A DNA stretch of 64,000 nt from Flavobacteriales bacterium (GCA_034439875.1 JAWXBG010000223.1:2973-66972); one strand, 5' to 3'. Shown: positions 2,305 to 59,015, counted from the first letter of the stretch. Numbers and translations: made by a program. Notes: generated by a model from the letters alone, not told the origin.

Positions 2305-4209
2305 ATGAAGTTTTACCAAAAAATCGTGTTCATCCTATTTTTTGTGCTGCCATCATCTCTCTTGGCGCAGTTGGAAAGGGTGGGTTATACTGAAGTTGCC
2401 GATGAGTTTCCGGTAGATACCAAATGGATAAATTATGATACGCCACTCAGCTTTTCTTCTTTTCGCGACAAGCTACTTGTGATTCATACCATGGATTTGG
2501 ATTGTATCGATTGCATTGAGCAAAATTTATTTTTGGACAAATCAGTTCGTTCTTTTTTCCATACTCAGCTTATCACGGTGTTTGACGAAGACACAACGGA
2601 TGTGCTTTATGTAGAAAGGATAAACGATTACATAAAGAGAAATCACATCAATCACCCTGTGGCAATCATGCCCGGTTTTAAGGGATTGAAAAACATTGAT
2701 GAAAGGAGACCGGGAATTACCCTTGTATATTTAAACAAGGCAGTACCTTTTCAGAAACTTGTTAAAGTTGGAATGTCTCCCGATCTAATTGGTTTAAAAG
2801 AGACTTTTGAAACGATCAATAAAAGTCCTAAATCAGGACAAGTCTTTGCGACTTCCATCTATCAATCTCGATCTAATCCGGATGTACTGGCACAGGCACT
2901 CATCGAGTTTCCCACATATCTCAGCGAAGGCGCTGGAGGACAACAGATTTTTGTGACTGATGCGGGTCACGACAGAATTGTGCTCACAGACTCGCAGGGA
3001 GATGTAAATACGGTTGTGGGAATGGCTGGAGGTGGTTTTGTAGAAGGACCATTTGATGTTGCAAGATTTAACGGTGCATCGGGTACCGCTTACAACGAGA
3101 AAGACTATGTTCTATATATTGCTGATACTTACAATCACAGATTGCGCGTAGCTGATTTCAAAGACGGTCAAACTAAAACAGTTTTGGGCAATGGTGTTTC
3201 CTTTGCAAATTCACAATTGCAAGAACAAGGATATACCCCTGGATTGACGACTAAAATTTTGGATGAAACCGAACCATTCGGCTATCCGACAGATGTACTT
3301 TTCATGAATGGTAAAGTCTATGTAGCGAGTGCTGAATACAATCAGATTTTTGAATTCAATCCGACGAGTAAAAGTGCAAATGAGTTGGTGCGTGTGATGA
3401 CTCCTATAGACAGTATGGGAGCAGTGCCTTACATTTCAAACCTCTCGGCGGGGAAAGATACAATCTACTGCGTGCTGAGCGATGGATCTGTATATGCCGT
3501 TGCACTTGGTGGCGAGAAACCGGTTGCTTCATTGTTATTAAAACAGACAGGGCTGCGTTCATTTGTGCAAGTCGAAAATTATTTGCTCGCAACTGTCGAT
3601 CATAAGATATATAGTTTTAGTAAATCGGAGTTGAAAGTAAAAAGTGGTAGTGGCGTGAGAGGTATTAAAAATGGAAAAGCATCGAAGTCCATGTATTCTT
3701 CTCCTTTCGACCTAGTTAGTTGGCAGGGTCAGGCGATGATTTCTGATGCCGGAAATCACACCCTTAGAACGATCTCTTTAAAAAAGGGCAAATCCGCTGG
3801 ATATCATTATTTCCCAGGAAGCAATTTGTGGCGATTTGCTGATGCTACTTCACACAGTGAATCAGCTTCTTTTGATCCAATCCATTGTGGAGTGGGAGCA
3901 GACATTACTATCAAACTTGATTTGGGAGAATACAAACTTGTACCTGAAGGTCACAATGAAGTACATGCCGACGGATCAAGTCCATTATCGATGACTTCTA
4001 TGGATATCTTGGAAAATCAGTTTACCTTTAGCATAACAAATGAGGGATATTCCGGGGCCATATTCTTAGAACTTTTTCTGACGGTTCAAAAGAAGAACAA
4101 TCCGGATTCTTATTTTCACAAAAGGGCTTTTTTAAATATTCCTATCGAATATGATAAACAAGGAGCTTCTGCACATGAGAGAACATTCAAGCCACTTATT
4201 ACAGACTAG
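2305..4209 (+). CDS. secreted thioredoxin-like / NHL-repeat beta-propeller protein (NHLRC2-like architecture)
   Basis: It has an N-terminal signal peptide, a CxxC motif (LDCIDCIE) in an N-terminal Trx-like region, and NHL-type repeats (YNHRLRVADF, DAGNHTLRTI, DAGHDRIVLTD). Confidence 0.6.
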   Translation: MKFYQKIVFILFFVLPSSLLAQLERVGYTEVADEFPVDTKWINYDTPLSFSSFRDKLLVIHTMDLDCIDCIEQNLFLDKSVRSFFHTQLITVFDEDTTDVLYVERINDYIKRNHINHPVAIMPGFKGLKNIDERRPGITLVYLNKAVPFQKLVKVGMSPDLIGLKETFETINKSPKSGQVFATSIYQSRSNPDVLAQALIEFPTYLSEGAGGQQIFVTDAGHDRIVLTDSQGDVNTVVGMAGGGFVEGPFDVARFNGASGTAYNEKDYVLYIADTYNHRLRVADFKDGQTKTVLGNGVSFANSQLQEQGYTPGLTTKILDETEPFGYPTDVLFMNGKVYVASAEYNQIFEFNPTSKSANELVRVMTPIDSMGAVPYISNLSAGKDTIYCVLSDGSVYAVALGGEKPVASLLLKQTGLRSFVQVENYLLATVDHKIYSFSKSELKVKSGSGVRGIKNGKASKSMYSSPFDLVSWQGQAMISDAGNHTLRTISLKKGKSAGYHYFPGSNLWRFADATSHSESASFDPIHCGVGADITIKLDLGEYKLVPEGHNEVHADGSSPLSMTSMDILENQFTFSITNEGYSGAIFLELFLTVQKKNNPDSYFHKRAFLNIPIEYDKQGASAHERTFKPLITD

Positions 4210-4228: not shown

Positions 4229-5272
4229 TTACTTTTCGCCCTTCACTCTTGAAAGCGCTTTTGCAGCGTCGGTGAATGTGGGTTCCAATTTGAGCGCCTG
4301 CGTATAATCTTCTTTGGCTTCTTTGGTTTTATTCAAGCTTTCGAAGGACAGACCTCTATTATAGTACGCTTTTGTGTATGCAGGTACCAGATTGATTGCC
4401 TCTGAGAATTCGACTGCCGCCGAATCGTACTGTTGCATGTATTCCAGATACACATATCCTTTATTGAAATGCGCTGCAGCCCAAGTTGGATCTATTTTTA
4501 GAATTTCATCGTAGCACTCAAAGGCCTGACGATACCAAGCAGGGTTCTTTTTACCGTTGTCCTGTAAGAATATAGCCTTGTTGTACAGAGCCTCTATACT
4601 TTGGGGTTTGATATCTATTGCCTGATTGTAGTATTCAAGTGCAAGAGGATGTTTTTTGTCTGCATAAGTGAGCCCAAGTTCAATGTACGCGTCAAAATAA
4701 TCAGGGTCTACTTCTATGGCTGTCTGATAAGATGAAAACGCGAGGTTCGTGTCGCCAATAGTTCTGTACAACCTACCTTTTAAATAATACGCGTAGGGGA
4801 GGAGTTCGTTTTCTTTCAGCGCTGCATTGATATGCCCGATCGCCATTTCGTAGTTTTTTAGAACGATGTCGATAGCGGCTTTTTTCAGAAGACAGTCAGT
4901 ATTTTTATCATTTTTGCCTAAACAGTTTGTGTATTCTATATATGCATTTTTCACATCTTGTCTAAACCAGTGCAATTCGCCTTTGTAGAGATAAATTTCA
5001 TCTTGAGTGCTGTCAGATTGAAGTGCTCTGGCGACGTCGAGAAACGCTAGATCGTAATTTTCCCTTTGACCGTAGTACTTAGCTCTATTGAGGTAATTGA
5101 GGTAATTATTGGGGTCCTCCAATATTTTTTGATTTAAGTTTTGCAACGAAGAGTCGACTGTTGCTTTTTCGTCGCTTTTATTTCCTTCCTGACCTGTTTG
5201 TTTTGGTTTTTGGTAGCATGCGGCTAGGGTCACTAAGGCTAGAACAATGAAATACGGATAAGATCTTTTCAT
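4229..5272 (-). CDS. TPR-repeat lipoprotein
   Basis: Multiple TPR-like repeats run through the protein (AxxYYNRGxxY.. pattern). I prefer the internal start at 5272 (MKRSYPYFIVLALVTLAAC, lipobox Cys), because the longer ORF to 5335 would run through the recA terminator hairpin. Confidence 0.75.
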   Translation of the reverse strand: MKRSYPYFIVLALVTLAACYQKPKQTGQEGNKSDEKATVDSSLQNLNQKILEDPNNYLNYLNRAKYYGQRENYDLAFLDVARALQSDSTQDEIYLYKGELHWFRQDVKNAYIEYTNCLGKNDKNTDCLLKKAAIDIVLKNYEMAIGHINAALKENELLPYAYYLKGRLYRTIGDTNLAFSSYQTAIEVDPDYFDAYIELGLTYADKKHPLALEYYNQAIDIKPQSIEALYNKAIFLQDNGKKNPAWYRQAFECYDEILKIDPTWAAAHFNKGYVYLEYMQQYDSAAVEFSEAINLVPAYTKAYYNRGLSFESLNKTKEAKEDYTQALKLEPTFTDAAKALSRVKGEK

Positions 5273-5306
5273 GGGACTACAAGGATAAGGCATAATGAAA
5301 TAAAAA

Positions 5307-5332
5307 GCCCGTGAATCGAAAGATCCACGGGC
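5307..5332 (-). terminator. rho-independent terminator after recA
   Basis: On the minus strand, GCCCGTG-12 nt-CACGGGC is followed by TTTTTATTT. It lies between the recA stop (5350) and the TPR gene start (5272). Confidence 0.65.
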
Positions 5333-5349
5333 CAAAAATATTTCAAAAT

Positions 5350-6537: not shown

Positions 6538-6730
6538 ATACCGTATGGCTATCTACAATAGTCCAATTCCGTTTCACTCCATTAGCCTATAACAGCTACT
6601 CTAACGGCATTTACCACTTCATGTATATAAACCCGAATCATTCGATGGAGATATCGGAGTTCATCGGCCGTGTTATGTATTCCCGCAGCGCATTACCCTC
6701 AGGTTATTCCAATGCGTACTGTAGGATGGA
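6538..6730 (+). repeat. composite S-P interspersed repeat unit (copy R1)
   Basis: The S hairpin module (about 6551-6598, inverted relative to copy 11068-11115), a linker and the P module (about 6623-6730) align by eye to 18625-18843, to the reverse complement of 11347-11516, and to 58642-58922. Confidence 0.85.
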
Positions 6731-6776
6731 ATATTTTATATTCAGAATTGGGGTAAAATCCTGTTGATATGGCGAA

Positions 6777-10935: not shown

Positions 10936-11067
10936 AGTCGTATTTTATGATTCGGTCGCGAAGTTATACCAATGCCACAAATAAATTATACCTATGTTAT
11001 ACCCATTCTGCTTATTAAATTGTCCAAACTATTTTATAAACATGAAGTTGTAAATACTGTGGGAGTG

Positions 11068-11174
11068 GCTGTTATAGACCAATGAAGTGGAACGGAATTG
11101 GACTATTACAGATACATAAACGGTGTTACTTGATAAATGGTCCATCCTGCAAGGCGCATTGGAAGTATTTTGAA
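11068..11174 (-). repeat. S hairpin module plus distal arm of a P module (copy R2, left part)
   Basis: 11068-11115 is the cleanest S copy (CTGTTATAG.CCAAT-13 nt-ATTGG.CTATTACAG hairpin). 11129-11174 matches the distal end of P in reverse orientation and stops at the TTGAA target duplication of the inserted MITE. Confidence 0.85.
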
Positions 11175-11346
11175 CCCAGAATACGCATTGGCATTCGCTA
11201 TGAAGTGCTACACCCCACAGATAGCAAGTGCTCTCGCCAGATTATTATTAGATAGTGTATATTCATACATCAAGAATAAGAATCGAGAAAGTGCTTGATA
11301 TCAAAGGGGGTTAGCGCAGCAATAGATTTCCAATATGGATTCTGGG
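11175..11346 (+). mobile_element. 172-bp MITE-like element, copy 1 (nested in a P module)
   Basis: Its ends are CCCAGAATACGCATTGG and CCAATATGGATTCTGGG. It is flanked by direct TTGAA at 11170-11174 and 11347-11351, and aligns full-length with 18844-19015 and 29231-29402. Confidence 0.85.
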
Positions 11347-11516
11347 TTGAAAGTAATGCGCTGCGGATTTACGAAGGAACAATGTAATAACTCGACCATT
11401 GAATTCCCTGGTCTCCATCGAATGATTTGGGTTTATGTGCATGCATCGGTAGGTGCCGTTAGACCTAGCTGTTATAGACCGATAGAGTGAAACGGTATTG
11501 GACTAATGCAGATTCA
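11347..11516 (-). repeat. P module (proximal part), linker and S module (copy R2, right part)
   Basis: Its reverse complement aligns with 6551-6700 and 18651-18800. The S end overlaps the last codons and the stop of the DUF4476 gene. Confidence 0.85.
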
Positions 11517-12234
11517 AGCTCACACGCGCTGATTCTCTATTGACCTTGAGAATAAAAGCGTGGAGCAACTCCGCGCGGTCGTCCAAATCATAAATAGCTG
11601 AAGAAAAACGACTCAAGACTTTCAGTTTGTTTTCTTCAGCATCCAAACGAAGAAGACAAGTGAAGAGTTGTTCAACTTTGAGGCAGCTCATCACGTCTTT
11701 TTGGAGCAGTTTTGTGAGCTTTTGAGACTCAAATAGGGAGTTGTCGACGTCTTCCAACCACTCTTCAAATTCTTCATCAGACAATGGGTTTTCACAACCC
11801 AGCTTGCCTTCGTAATAAACACTTATTTCTGAAATCACCGCTGTTGAGTCAAATGGGACATTTTGCACATTGTTTCTGGCAACACTTTCTGCTGAAAATT
11901 GAAGTTTTGGAACCCCTTTCATTATTTGAACGAAATAGTCGGAGCGGGTATTGGGCTTTAAAGTGATCCACTGCGAAAGGCTAGAATATTTGCCGTTCAC
12001 AAATTCAAACTTAATTTCTGTTTTACCCGCCTCAAGCCCTTGGAGAGTAATTGAATTGCAATAAAAATTATTGACAACTAAAGCACCAATATGCAGTTTG
12101 AAAGAGCAACTATCCGGAGCAGAAATATTCAAAGCAGCCATTTGGGAAGATGCCGCGAAAGTGAGCTTTAAAATGACGACAAGTGATATAAGCAGTTTCT
12201 TTTTCATTTCGTTTTTTATCTTTTCGGTTGTCAC
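11503..12234 (-). CDS. DUF4476 domain-containing secreted protein
   Basis: It has a signal peptide (MKKKLLISLVVILKLTFAASSQ) and a C-terminal region resembling DUF4476 (C.NP.SDEEFEEW...FESQKL...). The alternative ATG start at 12207 is at least as likely as the GTG at 12234. Confidence 0.65.
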   Translation of the reverse strand: MTTEKIKNEMKKKLLISLVVILKLTFAASSQMAALNISAPDSCSFKLHIGALVVNNFYCNSITLQGLEAGKTEIKFEFVNGKYSSLSQWITLKPNTRSDYFVQIMKGVPKLQFSAESVARNNVQNVPFDSTAVISEISVYYEGKLGCENPLSDEEFEEWLEDVDNSLFESQKLTKLLQKDVMSCLKVEQLFTCLLRLDAEENKLKVLSRFSSAIYDLDDRAELLHAFILKVNRESARVSLNLH

Positions 12235-16881: not shown

Positions 16882-18624
16882 ATGGGTAAAGAGTTAAAAT
16901 TAAGCAATTTAAGGTTTTTGGCGACGGTTTTTTGTGTCACTCTATATAATATAGTATCGCTTGCTCAGGTTCAGGTATACCCCCAAGATTATTTTCGGTC
17001 GCCTTTGGATATTCCCCTCCACCTAAGTGGAAATTTTGGGGAGCTCCGAACAAATCACTTCCATGCCGGCCTCGATATAAAAACCGCTCAAGAGGAGGGT
17101 AAGAAGATTTATGCGGCGGCCGATGGATATGTTTCGCGGATCAAAGTTTCGCCTTTTGGATATGGGTATGCAATGTACATTGATCACCCAAATGGATATA
17201 CTACGGTGTATGGCCACTTGAAGGAATATTCTCCCTTCATCGCAAAGTATGTCTTTCGAGAGCAATATAAAATGGAGACCTTCACTATAGACCTATTCCC
17301 AAAACCTGAAGAATTGCCTGTTTTAAAAGGTGATGTAATTGCCCTCTCGGGAAACTCGGGTGGAAGTGGTGGTCCGCATTTGCATTTTGAAGTACGAGAA
17401 ACCAAAACTGAAAAATTGGTTAACCCACTTCTTTTTGGATTCGACATTAAAGATAAAATTCAACCCATCATCAATGCGGTGATGATTGTGCCCATGAGCG
17501 AAACCTCTTCTGTTGGCGGATCAGGAAATTACAAAACTCTGGATACTAAGGTTCATTCCGGCAAATGCGCGTTGAAGTCGATCGTGCCAATGACGGTTCA
17601 TGGCGATATTGGTTTTGCAATACATACAATGGATATGGCTGATGGAAATTCCAATAGATGTGGTATCTATAGAATAGAACTCAAGGTAGATGGACTAGTG
17701 GTATACGCTCAACAGATGGACAAATTGGATTTTGGCACTACCAGATCTATGAATGCACATACTTTCTATGAAATCTTCAAGAAAAATAGATCACAAATTC
17801 ATCGTTCGTATCGACTTCCGAATAATATGTTGGATATATATGACAACTTAGTGAACGATGGCATTCTAACTTTTACAGACGATCAGTTGCACTCTATAGA
17901 GTACAGCGTGACCGACATCAAAGGCAATGTTTCCACATTGGCATTTAATGTAAAATCAATAAGTACAGGCGCGATTAAACCTGCCGGATTAAAAGGAAAA
18001 GCATTATTCGATTTTGAAAAGGATAGTTATTTTGAAAATGATAGAGTGAAGGTTTCCGTAACTGCTTTCACTTTATATGAAAACCTAGACTTTGATGTGG
18101 TGAATGGAAGACCTATTCAGGGAAGTGTGGTGCCTGCGATTCTCTTAGCTAATCCTTATGTCCCCATTCATGGTCATTATGAATTGAGCTTGAAGGCGGA
18201 TAAAATTGCAGAGGATAAACGCAATAAAGCAATTGTTGTTCGCTGGGATCCTGAAAAGGACAAAGTTTTAAGTGAAGGAGGAAATTATCATGAGGGATGG
18301 ATCACCTGTGAGACACAATACTTTGGGCATTTTGGTGTGATGATAGATAGCATTGCTCCTTCTATCAGCTCTATAGATTTCGCCACTGCAATGAAGGGAC
18401 GTAAGAAGTTTTCAATGAAAATTTATGATAGTCTTTCGGGCATTGATCAGATCATTCCTAAGATAGATGGCAAGTGGGCCTTAATGGAATACGATGCCAA
18501 GAACAATAAACTCTCTTACTATTTCAATGAGGAATACCTAAGCCATGGTTCGCATACGTTTTCGCTTACAATCATAGATGCGGTTGGAAATAGCAAGGAG
18601 TATACTTCAAAGTTCGATTGGTAG
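16882..18624 (+). CDS. M23 family metallopeptidase
   Basis: LytM/M23 motifs are present (HFHAGLDIKT, GNSGGSGGPHLHFEVR). I prefer the ATG at 16882 over the GTG at 16846. Confidence 0.85.
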   Translation: MGKELKLSNLRFLATVFCVTLYNIVSLAQVQVYPQDYFRSPLDIPLHLSGNFGELRTNHFHAGLDIKTAQEEGKKIYAAADGYVSRIKVSPFGYGYAMYIDHPNGYTTVYGHLKEYSPFIAKYVFREQYKMETFTIDLFPKPEELPVLKGDVIALSGNSGGSGGPHLHFEVRETKTEKLVNPLLFGFDIKDKIQPIINAVMIVPMSETSSVGGSGNYKTLDTKVHSGKCALKSIVPMTVHGDIGFAIHTMDMADGNSNRCGIYRIELKVDGLVVYAQQMDKLDFGTTRSMNAHTFYEIFKKNRSQIHRSYRLPNNMLDIYDNLVNDGILTFTDDQLHSIEYSVTDIKGNVSTLAFNVKSISTGAIKPAGLKGKALFDFEKDSYFENDRVKVSVTAFTLYENLDFDVVNGRPIQGSVVPAILLANPYVPIHGHYELSLKADKIAEDKRNKAIVVRWDPEKDKVLSEGGNYHEGWITCETQYFGHFGVMIDSIAPSISSIDFATAMKGRKKFSMKIYDSLSGIDQIIPKIDGKWALMEYDAKNNKLSYYFNEEYLSHGSHTFSLTIIDAVGNSKEYTSKFDW

Positions 18625-18843
18625 AGATTCCCCCGATTTATACCGTTTAGGTATCTGTAATAGTCCAATACCGTTCCACTCCAATAGCCTAGAACAGCTA
18701 TTCAAAAGCATTGACCACTTCAAGCATACAAACCCGAATCACGCGAAGGAGATATTGGAATTCATTGGTCGTGTTATGTCTTCCCGCAGCGCATTGCCCT
18801 CAAAATTCTTCCAATGCGCAATGCGGGATAGACCATTTATTAA
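18625..18843 (+). repeat. composite S-P interspersed repeat unit (copy R3)
   Basis: It starts right after the M23 stop codon. The S module is at about 18651-18700 and the P module at about 18722-18843, with a 15-bp-stem hairpin at 18782-18828. It aligns with the copies at 6.5, 11.4 and 58.8 kb. Confidence 0.85.
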
Positions 18844-19015
18844 TCCAGAATCCGCATTGGGATTCGCTATGAAGTGCTAAGCCCCACAGATAGCACGTGC
18901 TCTCGCAAGATTTTTATTTGAAGGTGTATATTCATACATCAAGAATAAAAACCGAGAAAGTGCTTGATATCAAAGAGAGTTAGTGCTGCAAAAGATTTCC
19001 ATTGCGGATTCTGGG
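18844..19015 (+). mobile_element. 172-bp MITE-like element, copy 2
   Basis: Its ends are TCCAGAATCCGCATTGG and CCATTGCGGATTCTGGG. It is flanked by direct ATTAA at 18839-18843 and 19016-19020. Confidence 0.85.
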
Positions 19016-19036
19016 ATTAAGGAACAGTGTTATTAT

Positions 19037-20044
19037 TTACAAGAAATCCGATTCACTCATGCCCAACCATTCGAGAGGCGCTTTATAAAAAATATTATCT
19101 CGGTCTTCTTGAGTAATATCCATTTCAGAAATGAATTTACCAATTTCAAGATCGCCTAAAGGGAATGGATAATCTGTTCCAAGAGTAATTTTCTCGCTTC
19201 CCACTACTTCAATTATATACTTGAGCAATTGTGGATCGTGGGTAGCGCTGTCAACCCAAAATTTACCAAGGTATTCTCGCGGATTCACAGGATTGTCGAG
19301 AGCCACCAAGTCAGGACGACAATTAAAACCATGTTCAATTCTACCAATTGTAGGAATAAAAGAACCTCCGGCGTGGGCAAAGTTGAATCTGATACCAGGG
19401 AATTTATCGAAAATGCCACCGAAGATCAATGAGCAAACAGCTCTCGAAGTTTCGGCAGGCATCCCAACAAGCCATGGTAGCCAATATCGAGCCATCTGAT
19501 CTTGACCCATCATTTCCCATGGATGCACAAGCACACACATATTATTTTTCTCTAGTGCTTCCCAAATTGGAAAGAAAAAAGGTTCATTCAAATTTTTTCC
19601 ATTCACATTCGAACCAATCTGAATACCTCTAAATCCAATTTTTCGACACCGATCTATTTCTTTCACGGCAAGTTCAGGATCTTGCATTGGCAGAGTTGCC
19701 AGGCCCACATAGTTTTTCGGAAACTTGTGGAATGCCTCAGCTAAATCATCGTTTAAGAACCGCGATACTTCCATGCAATCTTCAGGTTTGGCCCAATATG
19801 CAAAGAGTACGGGTATAGTACATACCACTTGAACTTTTGTTTGAAAGGTGGCATATTCTTCAATGCGCAATGCTGGGTCCCAACAATTGCTCGCTATTTC
19901 TCGAAAGAATTTTTCACCTTGCATCATTCTTGCAAATCCATCGCGGTGGTGATCAAGATGAATAAATGATCCATACCCAAACTTCTTGCTCCAGTCGGGC
20001 AAATTTTTCGGCATTAAATGAGTATGTGTATCAATTTTCATCAC
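19037..20044 (-). CDS. 2-amino-3-carboxymuconate-6-semialdehyde decarboxylase-like amidohydrolase (ACMSD family)
   Basis: It has the metal-binding HxH at the N-terminus (KIDTHTHL) and long collinear matches to my recollection of animal ACMSD (YWAKPED, YWLPWLVGMPAET, GTDYPFPLG). Confidence 0.8.
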   Translation of the reverse strand: MMKIDTHTHLMPKNLPDWSKKFGYGSFIHLDHHRDGFARMMQGEKFFREIASNCWDPALRIEEYATFQTKVQVVCTIPVLFAYWAKPEDCMEVSRFLNDDLAEAFHKFPKNYVGLATLPMQDPELAVKEIDRCRKIGFRGIQIGSNVNGKNLNEPFFFPIWEALEKNNMCVLVHPWEMMGQDQMARYWLPWLVGMPAETSRAVCSLIFGGIFDKFPGIRFNFAHAGGSFIPTIGRIEHGFNCRPDLVALDNPVNPREYLGKFWVDSATHDPQLLKYIIEVVGSEKITLGTDYPFPLGDLEIGKFISEMDITQEDRDNIFYKAPLEWLGMSESDFL

Positions 20045-29187: not shown

Positions 29188-29230
29188 TCCGAAATTCAAG
29201 TCATTTCTTGTTTTGAGAGGTGCCCTTAAA

Positions 29231-29402
29231 CCCAGAATCCGCATTGGGATTCGCTATGAAGTAGTAAACCCCACAGATAACAAGTGCTCTCGCCAGATTT
29301 TTATTTGATGGTGTATATTTATACATCAAGAATAAAAATCGAGAAAGTGCTTGATACCAAAGTGGGTTAGCGCTGCAATAGATTTCCAATGCGGATTCTT
29401 GG
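29231..29402 (+). mobile_element. 172-bp MITE-like element, copy 3 (solo, in unique DNA)
   Basis: Its ends are CCCAGAATCCGCATTGG and CCAATGCGGATTCTTGG. It is flanked by direct TTAAA at 29226-29230 and 29403-29407, between convergent genes. Confidence 0.88.
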
Positions 29403-29420
29403 TTAAAATTCCATTCCCAT

Positions 29421-31302: not shown

Positions 31303-31373
31303 CTTGCAAAAATGCAACTATTACCAATGTTAATTAAAAATGGTCCAAAATATTTTGTGCGTTTGCAGTGGTA

Positions 31374-31449
31374 GATGCCGTTGTGATTTATGTTTAGTTG
31401 AATGTAGCCAAACGAAATTGGACTATAGCGTTAATACAAACGGTATAGT
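31374..31449. repeat. diverged S-type repeat copy (R5a)
   Basis: GCCGTT..AAACGAAATTGGACTATAGCG..AAACGGTATAG matches the linker, the right half of S and the AAACGGTAT tail seen in other copies. The left half is degraded. Confidence 0.55.
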
Positions 31450-31513
31450 ACCAATTCTGCCGATAAAATAGTGCGACCTAATTTATAATCATCAAGTGTT
31501 AAATGCCGTTAAA

Positions 31514-31611
31514 CGCAGAATCCGCATTGGGGGTCGTGTAAAGTTGCTGTTATAGGATAATGGAGTGAAACGAAATTGGACTATTACAGATAACCGAACG
31601 GTATAAGATTC
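31514..31611. repeat. solo MITE-end-like segment fused to an S hairpin module (R5b)
   Basis: CGCAGAATCCGCATTGGGGG (31514-31533) matches the MITE left end. It is followed at 31546-31592 by a full S module and the AACGGTATAAGATTC tail. Confidence 0.75.
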
Positions 31612-58611: not shown

Positions 58612-58641
58612 AGTAGTAATACCGATCTTTTACCAATGGTT

Positions 58642-58922
58642 CTTAATAAACGTTCCATACTACATTGCGCATTGGAAGTTTGTTTTGGGCAATGCGCTGC
58701 AGGATATTGCATGCATGAAATGGTTAATGTCGTTTAGAGTGCCTGTAACAGGCCATTGAAGTGAAACTTTATTGGACTATTGCAGATACATAAACCCGAA
58801 TCACGCCATGGAGATATCGGAATTCATAGGTCGAACAATTACTTTGTTCCATCGTGTAGATTCGAGAATCCCGCATAGCATTAACCTCAAGATGCTTCCA
58901 ATGCGCAATGCGGGATAAATTG
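58642..58922. repeat. rearranged repeat cluster: internally deleted P (inverted), S hairpin, full P (copy R6)
   Basis: 58642-58715 matches the distal and proximal ends of P in reverse orientation, with about 75 bp missing. 58741-58789 is an S module and 58789-58922 is a P module in forward orientation. Confidence 0.8.
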
Positions 58923-59015
58923 GTTTAGCACTGCTTCCGGTTAAAGAATATTAAGTGCCTCACTAAACATCTTGCATGCTCTAGATTGATGGCTAGAAAT
59001 TCTCCAACACGAAAA

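Follow-up and report, generated by a model that had tools for sequence, protein, structure and literature searches.

The segment at 18625-18843 of the stretch of DNA analysed here (64,000 nucleotides, hereafter the window) carries two short modules, S and P, that recur elsewhere in the same stretch, and the locus raises the question of what kind of repeat these modules are and how they came to lie next to each other. The window is C223:2973-66972 of a MAG (G000; 3.64 Mb in 259 contigs, 41% G+C, 97% complete) whose protein relatives are uncultured freshwater Flavobacteriales. Module profiles were built from G000 itself by iterated nhmmer searches and their calls resolved to non-overlapping ones; gene positions were taken from an ORF-length proxy, with no gene caller, and two congeners (G001 and G002) served as same-genus comparison genomes. 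The answer, which is held with considerable confidence, is that S and P represent at least two families of MITEs (non-autonomous DNA transposons) that were inserted beside and inside each other in the intergenic, AT-rich DNA of a single lineage of Flavobacteriales.

An earlier note, made on the sequence of the window, had listed copies of S and P, together with a MITE here called M, at six intergenic loci. The profile searches recovered the listed copies of both modules, including a degraded S that had been seen near 31405-31430 and a fourth P, on the minus strand, that proved to be interrupted by M (Table 1). A per-base depth profile likewise resolved six repeat loci, with sharp steps that mark the module boundaries, and the estimate of 1.5-1.7 kb of repeat cover agrees with the 1,591 nt in module calls (2,173 nt lie at a repeat depth of at least 3). 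The sequence AAACGGTAT, which had been noticed to follow S, is the right terminus of the element to which S belongs.

Table 1. Repeat elements and modules located in the window (T, 43-nt module; P2, second hairpin of P)
Feature	Position	Strand	Support and flanks
Second T-Pshort-S	6539-6755	-	S 6540-6623(-), P-short 6627-6727(+), T 5' part 6728-6755(-); flanks TAA / AAA
T-P-S with two nested MITEs	10989-11519	+	terminal S 11439-11515(+)
T-S nested in 10989-11519	11000-11125		TTA at 10997-10999 and 11126-11128
S module	11041-11124	+	nhmmer
M nested in 10989-11519	11173-11348		inside P2 hairpin
P module interrupted by M	11347-11436	-	nhmmer
Composite T-Pshort-S with nested M, 392 nt	18641-19032	-	outer TTA at 18638-18640 and 19033-19035
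S module, right-terminal part of T..S (hairpin and ..AAACGGTA)	18641-18728	-	nhmmer 18642-18725, E = 2.8e-19
P-short, internal to composite	18730-18830	+	nhmmer model 3-128 in 101 nt, E = 3.3e-22
M, 172 nt, nested in T part of composite	18844-19015	.	E = 1.9e-50; ATTAA at 18839-18843 and 19016-19020
Solitary M	29231-29402	.	E = 3.3e-51; perfect 5-bp TTAAA at 29226-29230 and 29403-29407
Two adjacent degraded T..S-type elements	~31321-31446, 31449-31602	+	nhmmer; S at 31364-31444(+) (degraded) and 31538-31602(+)
T-P2-S (169-nt class) with full-length P nested in right terminus	58631-58924	+	P E = 4.5e-38; fold z = -3.15
S module	58713-58795	+	nhmmer
P module	58790-58918	+	nhmmer
Core of nested P	58795-58914		ATAAA at 58790-58794 and 58915-58919

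The repeats are far from being a peculiarity of the window. The segment 18625-18843 gave 551 HSPs on many contigs when it was compared with G000 by blastn, and in a self-comparison of the genome 136 kb (3.7%) lay at a repeat depth of at least 10. The approximate nhmmer copy numbers are 352 for M, 331 for P, 283 for S and 149 for T, amounting to 104 kb (2.9% of the genome) in 598 clusters, or about one per 6.1 kb; since 201 of the 518 contig ends fall within repeats, the true load must be above this measured value. The commonest state of each module is solitary (157 clusters of M, 73 of S, 65 of P and 47 of T-S), and where modules meet they abut at fixed junctions. Compared with their consensus, copies of S have a mean identity of 0.84, those of P 0.85 and those of M 0.77. 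The view that the repeats are non-coding and intergenic was upheld, with less than 6% of copy bases lying within ORFs of at least 150 aa as against 84% for the genome as a whole, and by the ORF proxy 29% of convergent, 18% of divergent and 12% of tandem spacers are occupied.

Beyond this genome, T-S and P are present in 12 of 201 genomes of the bacterial family, and a first look at candidate copies gave about 465 in G000, 281 in another member (G189) and at most 60 elsewhere. M is essentially confined to G000: its end motif gave 422 hits there, 14 in one other genome (G086, as small pairs) and background numbers elsewhere among 236 family genomes, and no M was found in the congeners G001 and G002.

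Several other repeats were noticed in G000 during this survey. At least three further dispersed families of ~150-200 nt exist (e.g., at C107:367-564, C51:23846-24040 and C202:6128-6317); family W starts with ACGGTATCAAGTG..., family Y starts with ATCTCTCTCCCGCGCTCCCAAAAG..., and family X, which contains CCTCTAAAAACCTGTTTTATGTTTCG, is a hotspot for the insertion of P and T..S. Long tandem arrays of an 8-nt unit (ATTCCCCC, ATTCCCAC and ATTCACTA variants) lie at many loci, among them C125:565-1039, C69:9928-10215 and C183:11197-11361, and reach a self-match depth of up to ~80. Contig ends (C146:1-1643 and C91:3-204) carry a CRISPR-like array in which unique spacers lie between copies of a long repeat (~47 nt, GTTGTGAATTGCTTTCGATCTTTGACATGTAAGATATTTGTACCAAC).

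The earlier note had treated S and P as two modules of one family, which they are not: P is a MITE in its own right, and S belongs to another element, of which it forms one half. The length of P is 129 nt, of which the core makes up 120; it has two internal hairpins and imperfect inverted ends, CCCGAATCACGCGATGG and CCCGCATTGCGCATTGG, that match over ~13-17 bp. The target-site duplication is 5 bp long and A/T-rich (ATAAA, ATTAT or ATTAA), the flanks being ATTAT on both sides in 37 copies and ATAAA on both sides in 36. Family X offered empty and filled versions of one such site. In at least 25 copies it reads GAAAC-ATAAA-ACAGG, and in the seven copies filled by P it is exactly 125 nt longer, i.e., by the core plus 5 bp; these seven hold two P subfamilies, which means that the same site was invaded at least twice. 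Only 15 of the 121 full-length copies of P have unique flanks on both sides, and identical 5-mers were found in 5 of the 15 (permutation maximum 7), a weak 5-bp signal. P has also repeatedly occupied the ATAAA inside the S terminus (43 cases), which explains the S(+)P(+) arrangement at 58.7 kb. A full-length P was observed in the congener G002 as well (L103:6939-7067, on G002:C85), between recA and the orthologue of the gene at 4229-5335, where the spacer in G000 measures 14 bp, so that P has been active in G002 independently.

M is a near-palindromic MITE of 172-178 nt with ends CCCAGAATCCGCATTGG, a perfect inverted repeat of 17-19 bp (AACCCAGAATCCGCATTGG) and the target TTNAA, which is found on both flanks. 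Of 58 copies, 43 have the same central N of the target on both sides (permutation mean 19.5, maximum 33) and 5 have complementary ones, and among copies with unique flanks the 5-bp register was the best, with identical 5-mers in 18 of 33 (permutation mean 6.9, maximum 16). The ends of P resemble those of M, the left being AACCCGAATCACGCGATGGAGAT in P and AACCCAGAATCCGCATTGGGAT in M and the right, TTCCAATGCG, being common to both. At least 11 copies have a common structure of ~520-560 nt in which M ends enclose P(-), a T-P2-S unit and a second P. Two of these M-bounded composites, at different sites, are flanked by perfect outer duplications that differ from each other (TTGAA and TTCAA), and these two must therefore have transposed as units after the nesting. 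The block P(-)[T-P2-S]P(+) was also considered as a compound bounded by two P ends; this was rejected because the flanks place the block inside M and the duplication lies at the M ends.

The second element, T..S, has the termini TACC..GGTA; S forms its right half, and the left half is the 43-nt module T, which abuts S 100 times. The resulting unit of ~126 nt reads TTA-TACCAATTCTGC...AAACGGTA-TTA and has one hairpin near each end, that of T having a stem of 13 bp. With 4 perfect bp (TACC/GGTA), or ~6/8, the inverted repeat is very short, and the target duplication is a 3-bp TWA (TTA or TAA), unlike the 5 bp of P and M. Copies with unique flanks have TTA/TTA in 16 cases and TAA/TAA in 12, with a single discordant one, and for all copies with TWA on both flanks the corresponding table is 28/2/3/15 (Fisher p = 8e-8); the W of the left and right TWA thus co-varies, as a true duplication predicts. 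A duplication of 7 bp, or of 2 bp (TA), was ruled out by the flank registers and by the empty site of family X. As a class, T..S is the less secure assignment, its inverted repeat being short and a partner enzyme having been found neither in the host nor in its relatives.

The arrangement S(-)-linker-P(+), which the earlier note had regarded as a fixed association of two modules, has a simple structural basis. In nearly all cases of P(-) abutting on the start of S(+), the first ~26 nt of T (...TACCAATTCTGCTTATAAAATAGTCC-ATCCCGCATTGCG...) follow on the far side of P. The two modules are therefore parts of one element, which has the left terminus of T, the right terminus of S and an interior derived from P; what had been described is the interior and right end of this single composite, T-P-S, which was amplified as a unit. 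Pairing of T-left with S-right termini gave main length classes of ~126 nt (T-S, with no interior, 54 copies) and ~167 nt (T-P2-S, with the P2 hairpin as the only interior, 57 copies), besides a class of ~235 nt in which P is without the 3' arm of hairpin 1 (T-Pshort-S, 8 copies, including the two in the window at 6.5 kb and 18.6 kb). The structures of T-P2-S and T-Pshort-S are directly observed; the simplest history of T-P-S would be that P was inserted into a TTTAT at the T/S junction, that small deletions followed, and that the product was amplified by means of the T..S ends.

The locus at 18.6 kb can be read in these terms. Its P-short retains the P2 hairpin (18782-18830; fold z = -2.95), and its T part was split by M, the sequence TAACACTGTTCC-TTAAT-AAATGGTC standing where the T consensus has TACCAATGTTACTTAATAAATGGTCC. 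The whole composite fills the spacer between convergent M23-peptidase and amidohydrolase genes. The stop codon of the latter (19037-19039, minus strand) lies one base past the TTA duplication, and the convergent pair is now parted almost wholly by transposon DNA. The copy at 6.5 kb is 81.5% identical to that at 18.6 kb over 200 nt. At the 11-kb locus a minus-strand ORF (11503-12234) was seen to have its last codons and stop inside the degenerate right S terminus (11503-11517).

Comparison with the congeners indicated how the spacers look without the repeats. Synteny of the window with G002 and G001 is complete across the 37 kb tested. The spacer that holds the composite 18641-19032 measures 412 bp in G000 as against 16 and 49 bp in G002 and G001, respectively; that holding 10989-11519 measures 567 bp as against 94 and 99 bp, and that holding the solitary M at 29231-29402 measures 233 bp as against 79 and 48 bp. 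The orthologous congener spacers are empty and the insertions at the compared spacers lineage-specific. An orthologous spacer of 1.7 kb in G189 was considered as a repeat-bearing one and discarded, as it holds two ordinary genes and no repeats.

What might have moved these elements was approached by searching for transposases. In G000, which is 97% complete but, being a MAG, may lack unbinned IS contigs, no match was found to PF01609 (DDE_Tnp_1), PF13701 (DDE_Tnp_1_4) or PF13359 (DDE_Tnp_4), and pairs of M- or P-type inverted ends 0.8-3 kb apart, as an autonomous element would have them, showed no recurrent spacing. The only transposase-like gene found in G000 belongs to an IS3-family element (C126:~60-1300) with frameshifted orfA/orfB and an rve domain (92 bits), the ends of which are unrelated to the MITEs. 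Among the 236 family genomes there was no IS with exact M or P ends and no IS-sized pair of M ends; none of the IS4/IS5-type transposases of the relatives that bear T-S had T..S, P or M ends, and a DDE_Tnp_4 (Harbinger-like) gene with matching ends was found neither in G000 nor in these relatives.

A lead came from G207, which belongs to the same bacterial family and in which full-length copies of P are present. Its contig C267 holds a 1.42-kb element with a 437-aa IS1380-family transposase (NF033539, 235 bits where the cut-off is 180), which the DDE_Tnp_1 model does detect, and with an inverted repeat CCCAGATTTTGCAGTT flanked by direct TTCAA; the best tblastn match of this transposase in G000 had E = 2. 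The end CCCAGATTTTGCAGTT itself occurs ~130 times in G000 with up to 3 mismatches, at least seven times exactly and once as a 21-nt exact match that includes TTCAA. Hits of this type pair 54-191 nt apart and amount to a further, minor MITE family (“M2”). The match to the end of the G207 element is exact for M2, extends to ~11/16 positions for M and is weaker for P, and no similarity of M or P to this IS was found beyond the inverted repeats. All of the M, P and M2 ends begin with CCC(A)G, as do those of the three IS1380-type elements examined, and metagenomic relatives of the G207 transposase (76% and 45% identity) have ends starting with CCC and A/T-rich flanks. Nested palindromic MITE-like structures were also seen to flank the G207 element (L109:879-1402 and 2827-3007, on G207:C267), one of them abutting its TTCAA, so that the habit of insertion beside related elements is common to G207 and G000.

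The published properties of the IS1380 family are in keeping with this lead. Its member IS1247 has a 5-bp direct repeat (PMC3281130, Table 2), and members of the family tolerate imperfect ends and mobilise adjacent DNA (PMC9330008), which would fit composites with one M end and one P end. The family, represented by IS1247, ISEcp1 and ISPme1, resembles P and M in the 5-bp repeat, the AT-rich targets and the CC(C) ends; it differs in that its transposase gene is absent from G000 and that the ends match only in part. It has also been used as the prokaryotic outgroup of piggyBac (PMC10813416). On account of the end similarity and the 5-bp duplication, P and M were assigned to IS1380-type MITEs. 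An origin from this family is the best-supported assignment that the sequences suggest, and, there being no matching transposase in the MAG, we infer the mobilisation by an IS1380 enzyme rather than demonstrate it. The earlier note had not been able to name a described family that matched.

Three readings other than transposition as MITEs concern the way in which the repeats spread. The earlier note had likened the pattern to REP/BIME elements, i.e., short palindromic units that are spread by a RAYT enzyme and clustered into mosaics, and the intergenic position, the capacity to form hairpins, the mosaic arrangement and the very high copy number would all suit such a system. REPs, however, are 20-40 nt long and have neither terminal inverted repeats nor a target-site duplication, whereas the units described here measure 120-180 nt and have both, with duplications of 3 or 5 bp. 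In addition, the RAYT/IS200-like mobilising enzyme that the earlier note had proposed to look for was not found, the Y1_Tnp/RAYT domain (PF01797) being absent from G000 and detected in 6 of 14 control genomes; this reading is therefore highly improbable, and it is the other comparison made in that note, with a nested-MITE mosaic, that is borne out by the terminal inverted repeats, the target-site duplications and the nested insertions. The Y1 search also bears on T..S taken by itself, which might be a PATE of the IS200/IS605 type, in which a Y1 transposase reads subterminal hairpins and inserts the element next to a fixed TTA or TAA with no true duplication. The hairpin near each end (the T stem and the S stem), the very short inverted repeat and a left-flank TWA that is somewhat better kept than the right (77 vs 61 of 98) could be so explained, but not the inverted termini or the co-variation of W described above (28 of 29 concordant for unique flanks), and with no Y1 transposase in G000 there is only a slight chance that T..S is of this kind. 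Least probable of all, and practically negligible, is a purely local origin on this contig, by segmental duplication or through an assembly artefact. Nothing spoke for it except that copies had first been seen clustered in the window; they lie on most of the 259 contigs, have diverged from the consensus by ~16%, and have relatives in other genera.

A different question is whether the repeats serve the cell as structured RNAs or cis-regulatory hairpins, e.g., as terminators, sRNAs or binding sites for proteins, and are kept under selection, with mobility being secondary. The consensus of S and its 11-kb copy both have the hairpin described in the earlier note, with a stem of 9 bp plus 5 bp and a loop of 13 nt, but in the 18.6-kb copy this hairpin has decayed (z = -1.6). 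Over all copies the stem cells are paired in 81.4% of cases against 80.6% under the null, i.e., the S stems decay near-neutrally, as fast as columns that are unpaired. The P hairpins are significantly stable (z ~ -3), and hairpin 1 has compensatory changes between subfamilies (220 compensatory cells, the null being 64 +/- 6). This signal, however, comes from 7 pairs of hairpin 1 in one subfamily (~33 copies), and selection on master copies for transposition could also yield it; the pattern would fit a constraint on master copies rather than a function of each copy. The enrichment of copies between convergent genes would suit a functional reading. No terminator-like site (a G+C-rich stem and a T run) was predicted in 18400-19200, and the copies have no strand bias relative to the flanking genes (in G000, by the ORF proxy). 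A match to a described RNA family, which the earlier note had named as a finding that would overturn its view, was not obtained: with Rfam 15 the whole window gave 0 matches at the gathering score, and the weak hits at 18560-19060 lay far below threshold. Finally, the congeners have no copies in the orthologous spacers, so that the neighbouring genes there manage without them. A functional role of this kind has thus to be considered improbable, about as much so as the PATE reading of T..S.

The course of events favoured here, i.e., insertion and nesting of MITEs, can be outlined as follows. P and M would have been moved in trans by an IS1380-family DDE transposase, which may have been lost from the assembled genome or never binned into the MAG. 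P would have struck the same short targets in T..S repeatedly, namely the ATAAA in the S terminus and the TTTAT at the T/S junction, and some of the nested products would then have lost internal DNA and multiplied as units of a new kind, bounded by the T-left and S-right ends (T-P2-S and T-Pshort-S). The individual copies are probably selfish and decay almost neutrally, with no demonstrable cellular function.

Parts of this picture are familiar from other systems. BOX elements in Streptococcus pneumoniae and BIMEs in E. coli consist of recurrent short modules that occur in several orders in intergenic DNA. The module sets of G000 differ from these in having their own inverted ends and duplication and in being more often alone than combined, and their modularity therefore stems from nesting and deletion rather than from a fixed A-B-C grammar. 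The Tourist and Stowaway MITEs of plants nest in themselves at short A/T targets, as the G000 elements do, and the Harbinger/Tourist duplication is a 3-bp TWA, as in T..S; Tourist and Stowaway, however, are eukaryotic, and no Harbinger-like gene was found in G000. A lineage-specific burst in a genome of the Bacteroidota, similar to that seen here, is represented by MITECca01 of a Cardinium endosymbiont, with 169 copies that make up 3.5% of the chromosome and lie mostly in intergenic DNA or inside other mobile elements (PMC9769881). MITECca01 goes back to an IS982-family element that its host genome retains in intact form, whereas no parent of the G000 MITEs is present; the host of the latter is also free-living, with several coexisting families and a higher load (598 loci). 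The Tn3-derived TIMEs are likewise small, with inverted ends and duplications of 5 or 6 bp in AT-rich DNA, and form mobile composites (PMC4133298). They share with the G000 MITEs the formation of larger mobile composites bounded by two element ends, but have 38-bp Tn3-type ends and capture plasmid genes, whereas in G000 the ends are IS1380-like and the passengers are other MITEs. No description of IS1380-derived MITEs at such a copy number was found in the literature searched.

The repeat system is thus real, well defined and unusually dense, and it is explained by known transposon biology, the current understanding of transposition being unchanged by these findings. It appears, as judged from sequence comparison, to comprise new MITE families of the IS1380 type and one family (T..S) of unassigned type, nested into mosaics. 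The elements break the assembly and fill whole spacers, and they will therefore mislead annotation, operon prediction and the discovery of RNA motifs in G000 and related MAGs from freshwater; the profiles defined here would allow them to be masked. They also provide a clean natural record of how “modular” repeats originate, by nesting at a few short targets, internal loss and re-amplification. A large MITE burst is here linked to IS1380-family elements, which are relatives of piggyBac in prokaryotes; piggyBac uses TTAA as its target, the preferred one in G000 being TTNAA. The largest number of MITEs recorded in one genome was 468 in a census of 183,232 genomes (bioRxiv 10.1101/2024.01.18.576219). 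With ~600 loci and more than 1,100 copies, or ~1 per 6 kb, the G000 lineage might be among the most MITE-dense prokaryotes recorded, its load consisting of orphan IS1380-type MITEs, and T..S could mark an undescribed IS group; this is put forward tentatively, as a rather doubtful extension of the data. G000 provides an example of a MITE-filled genome with no resident matching transposase, and if its MITEs are indeed orphans, this would imply that the source of their mobilisation was a plasmid, a phage or an element since lost.
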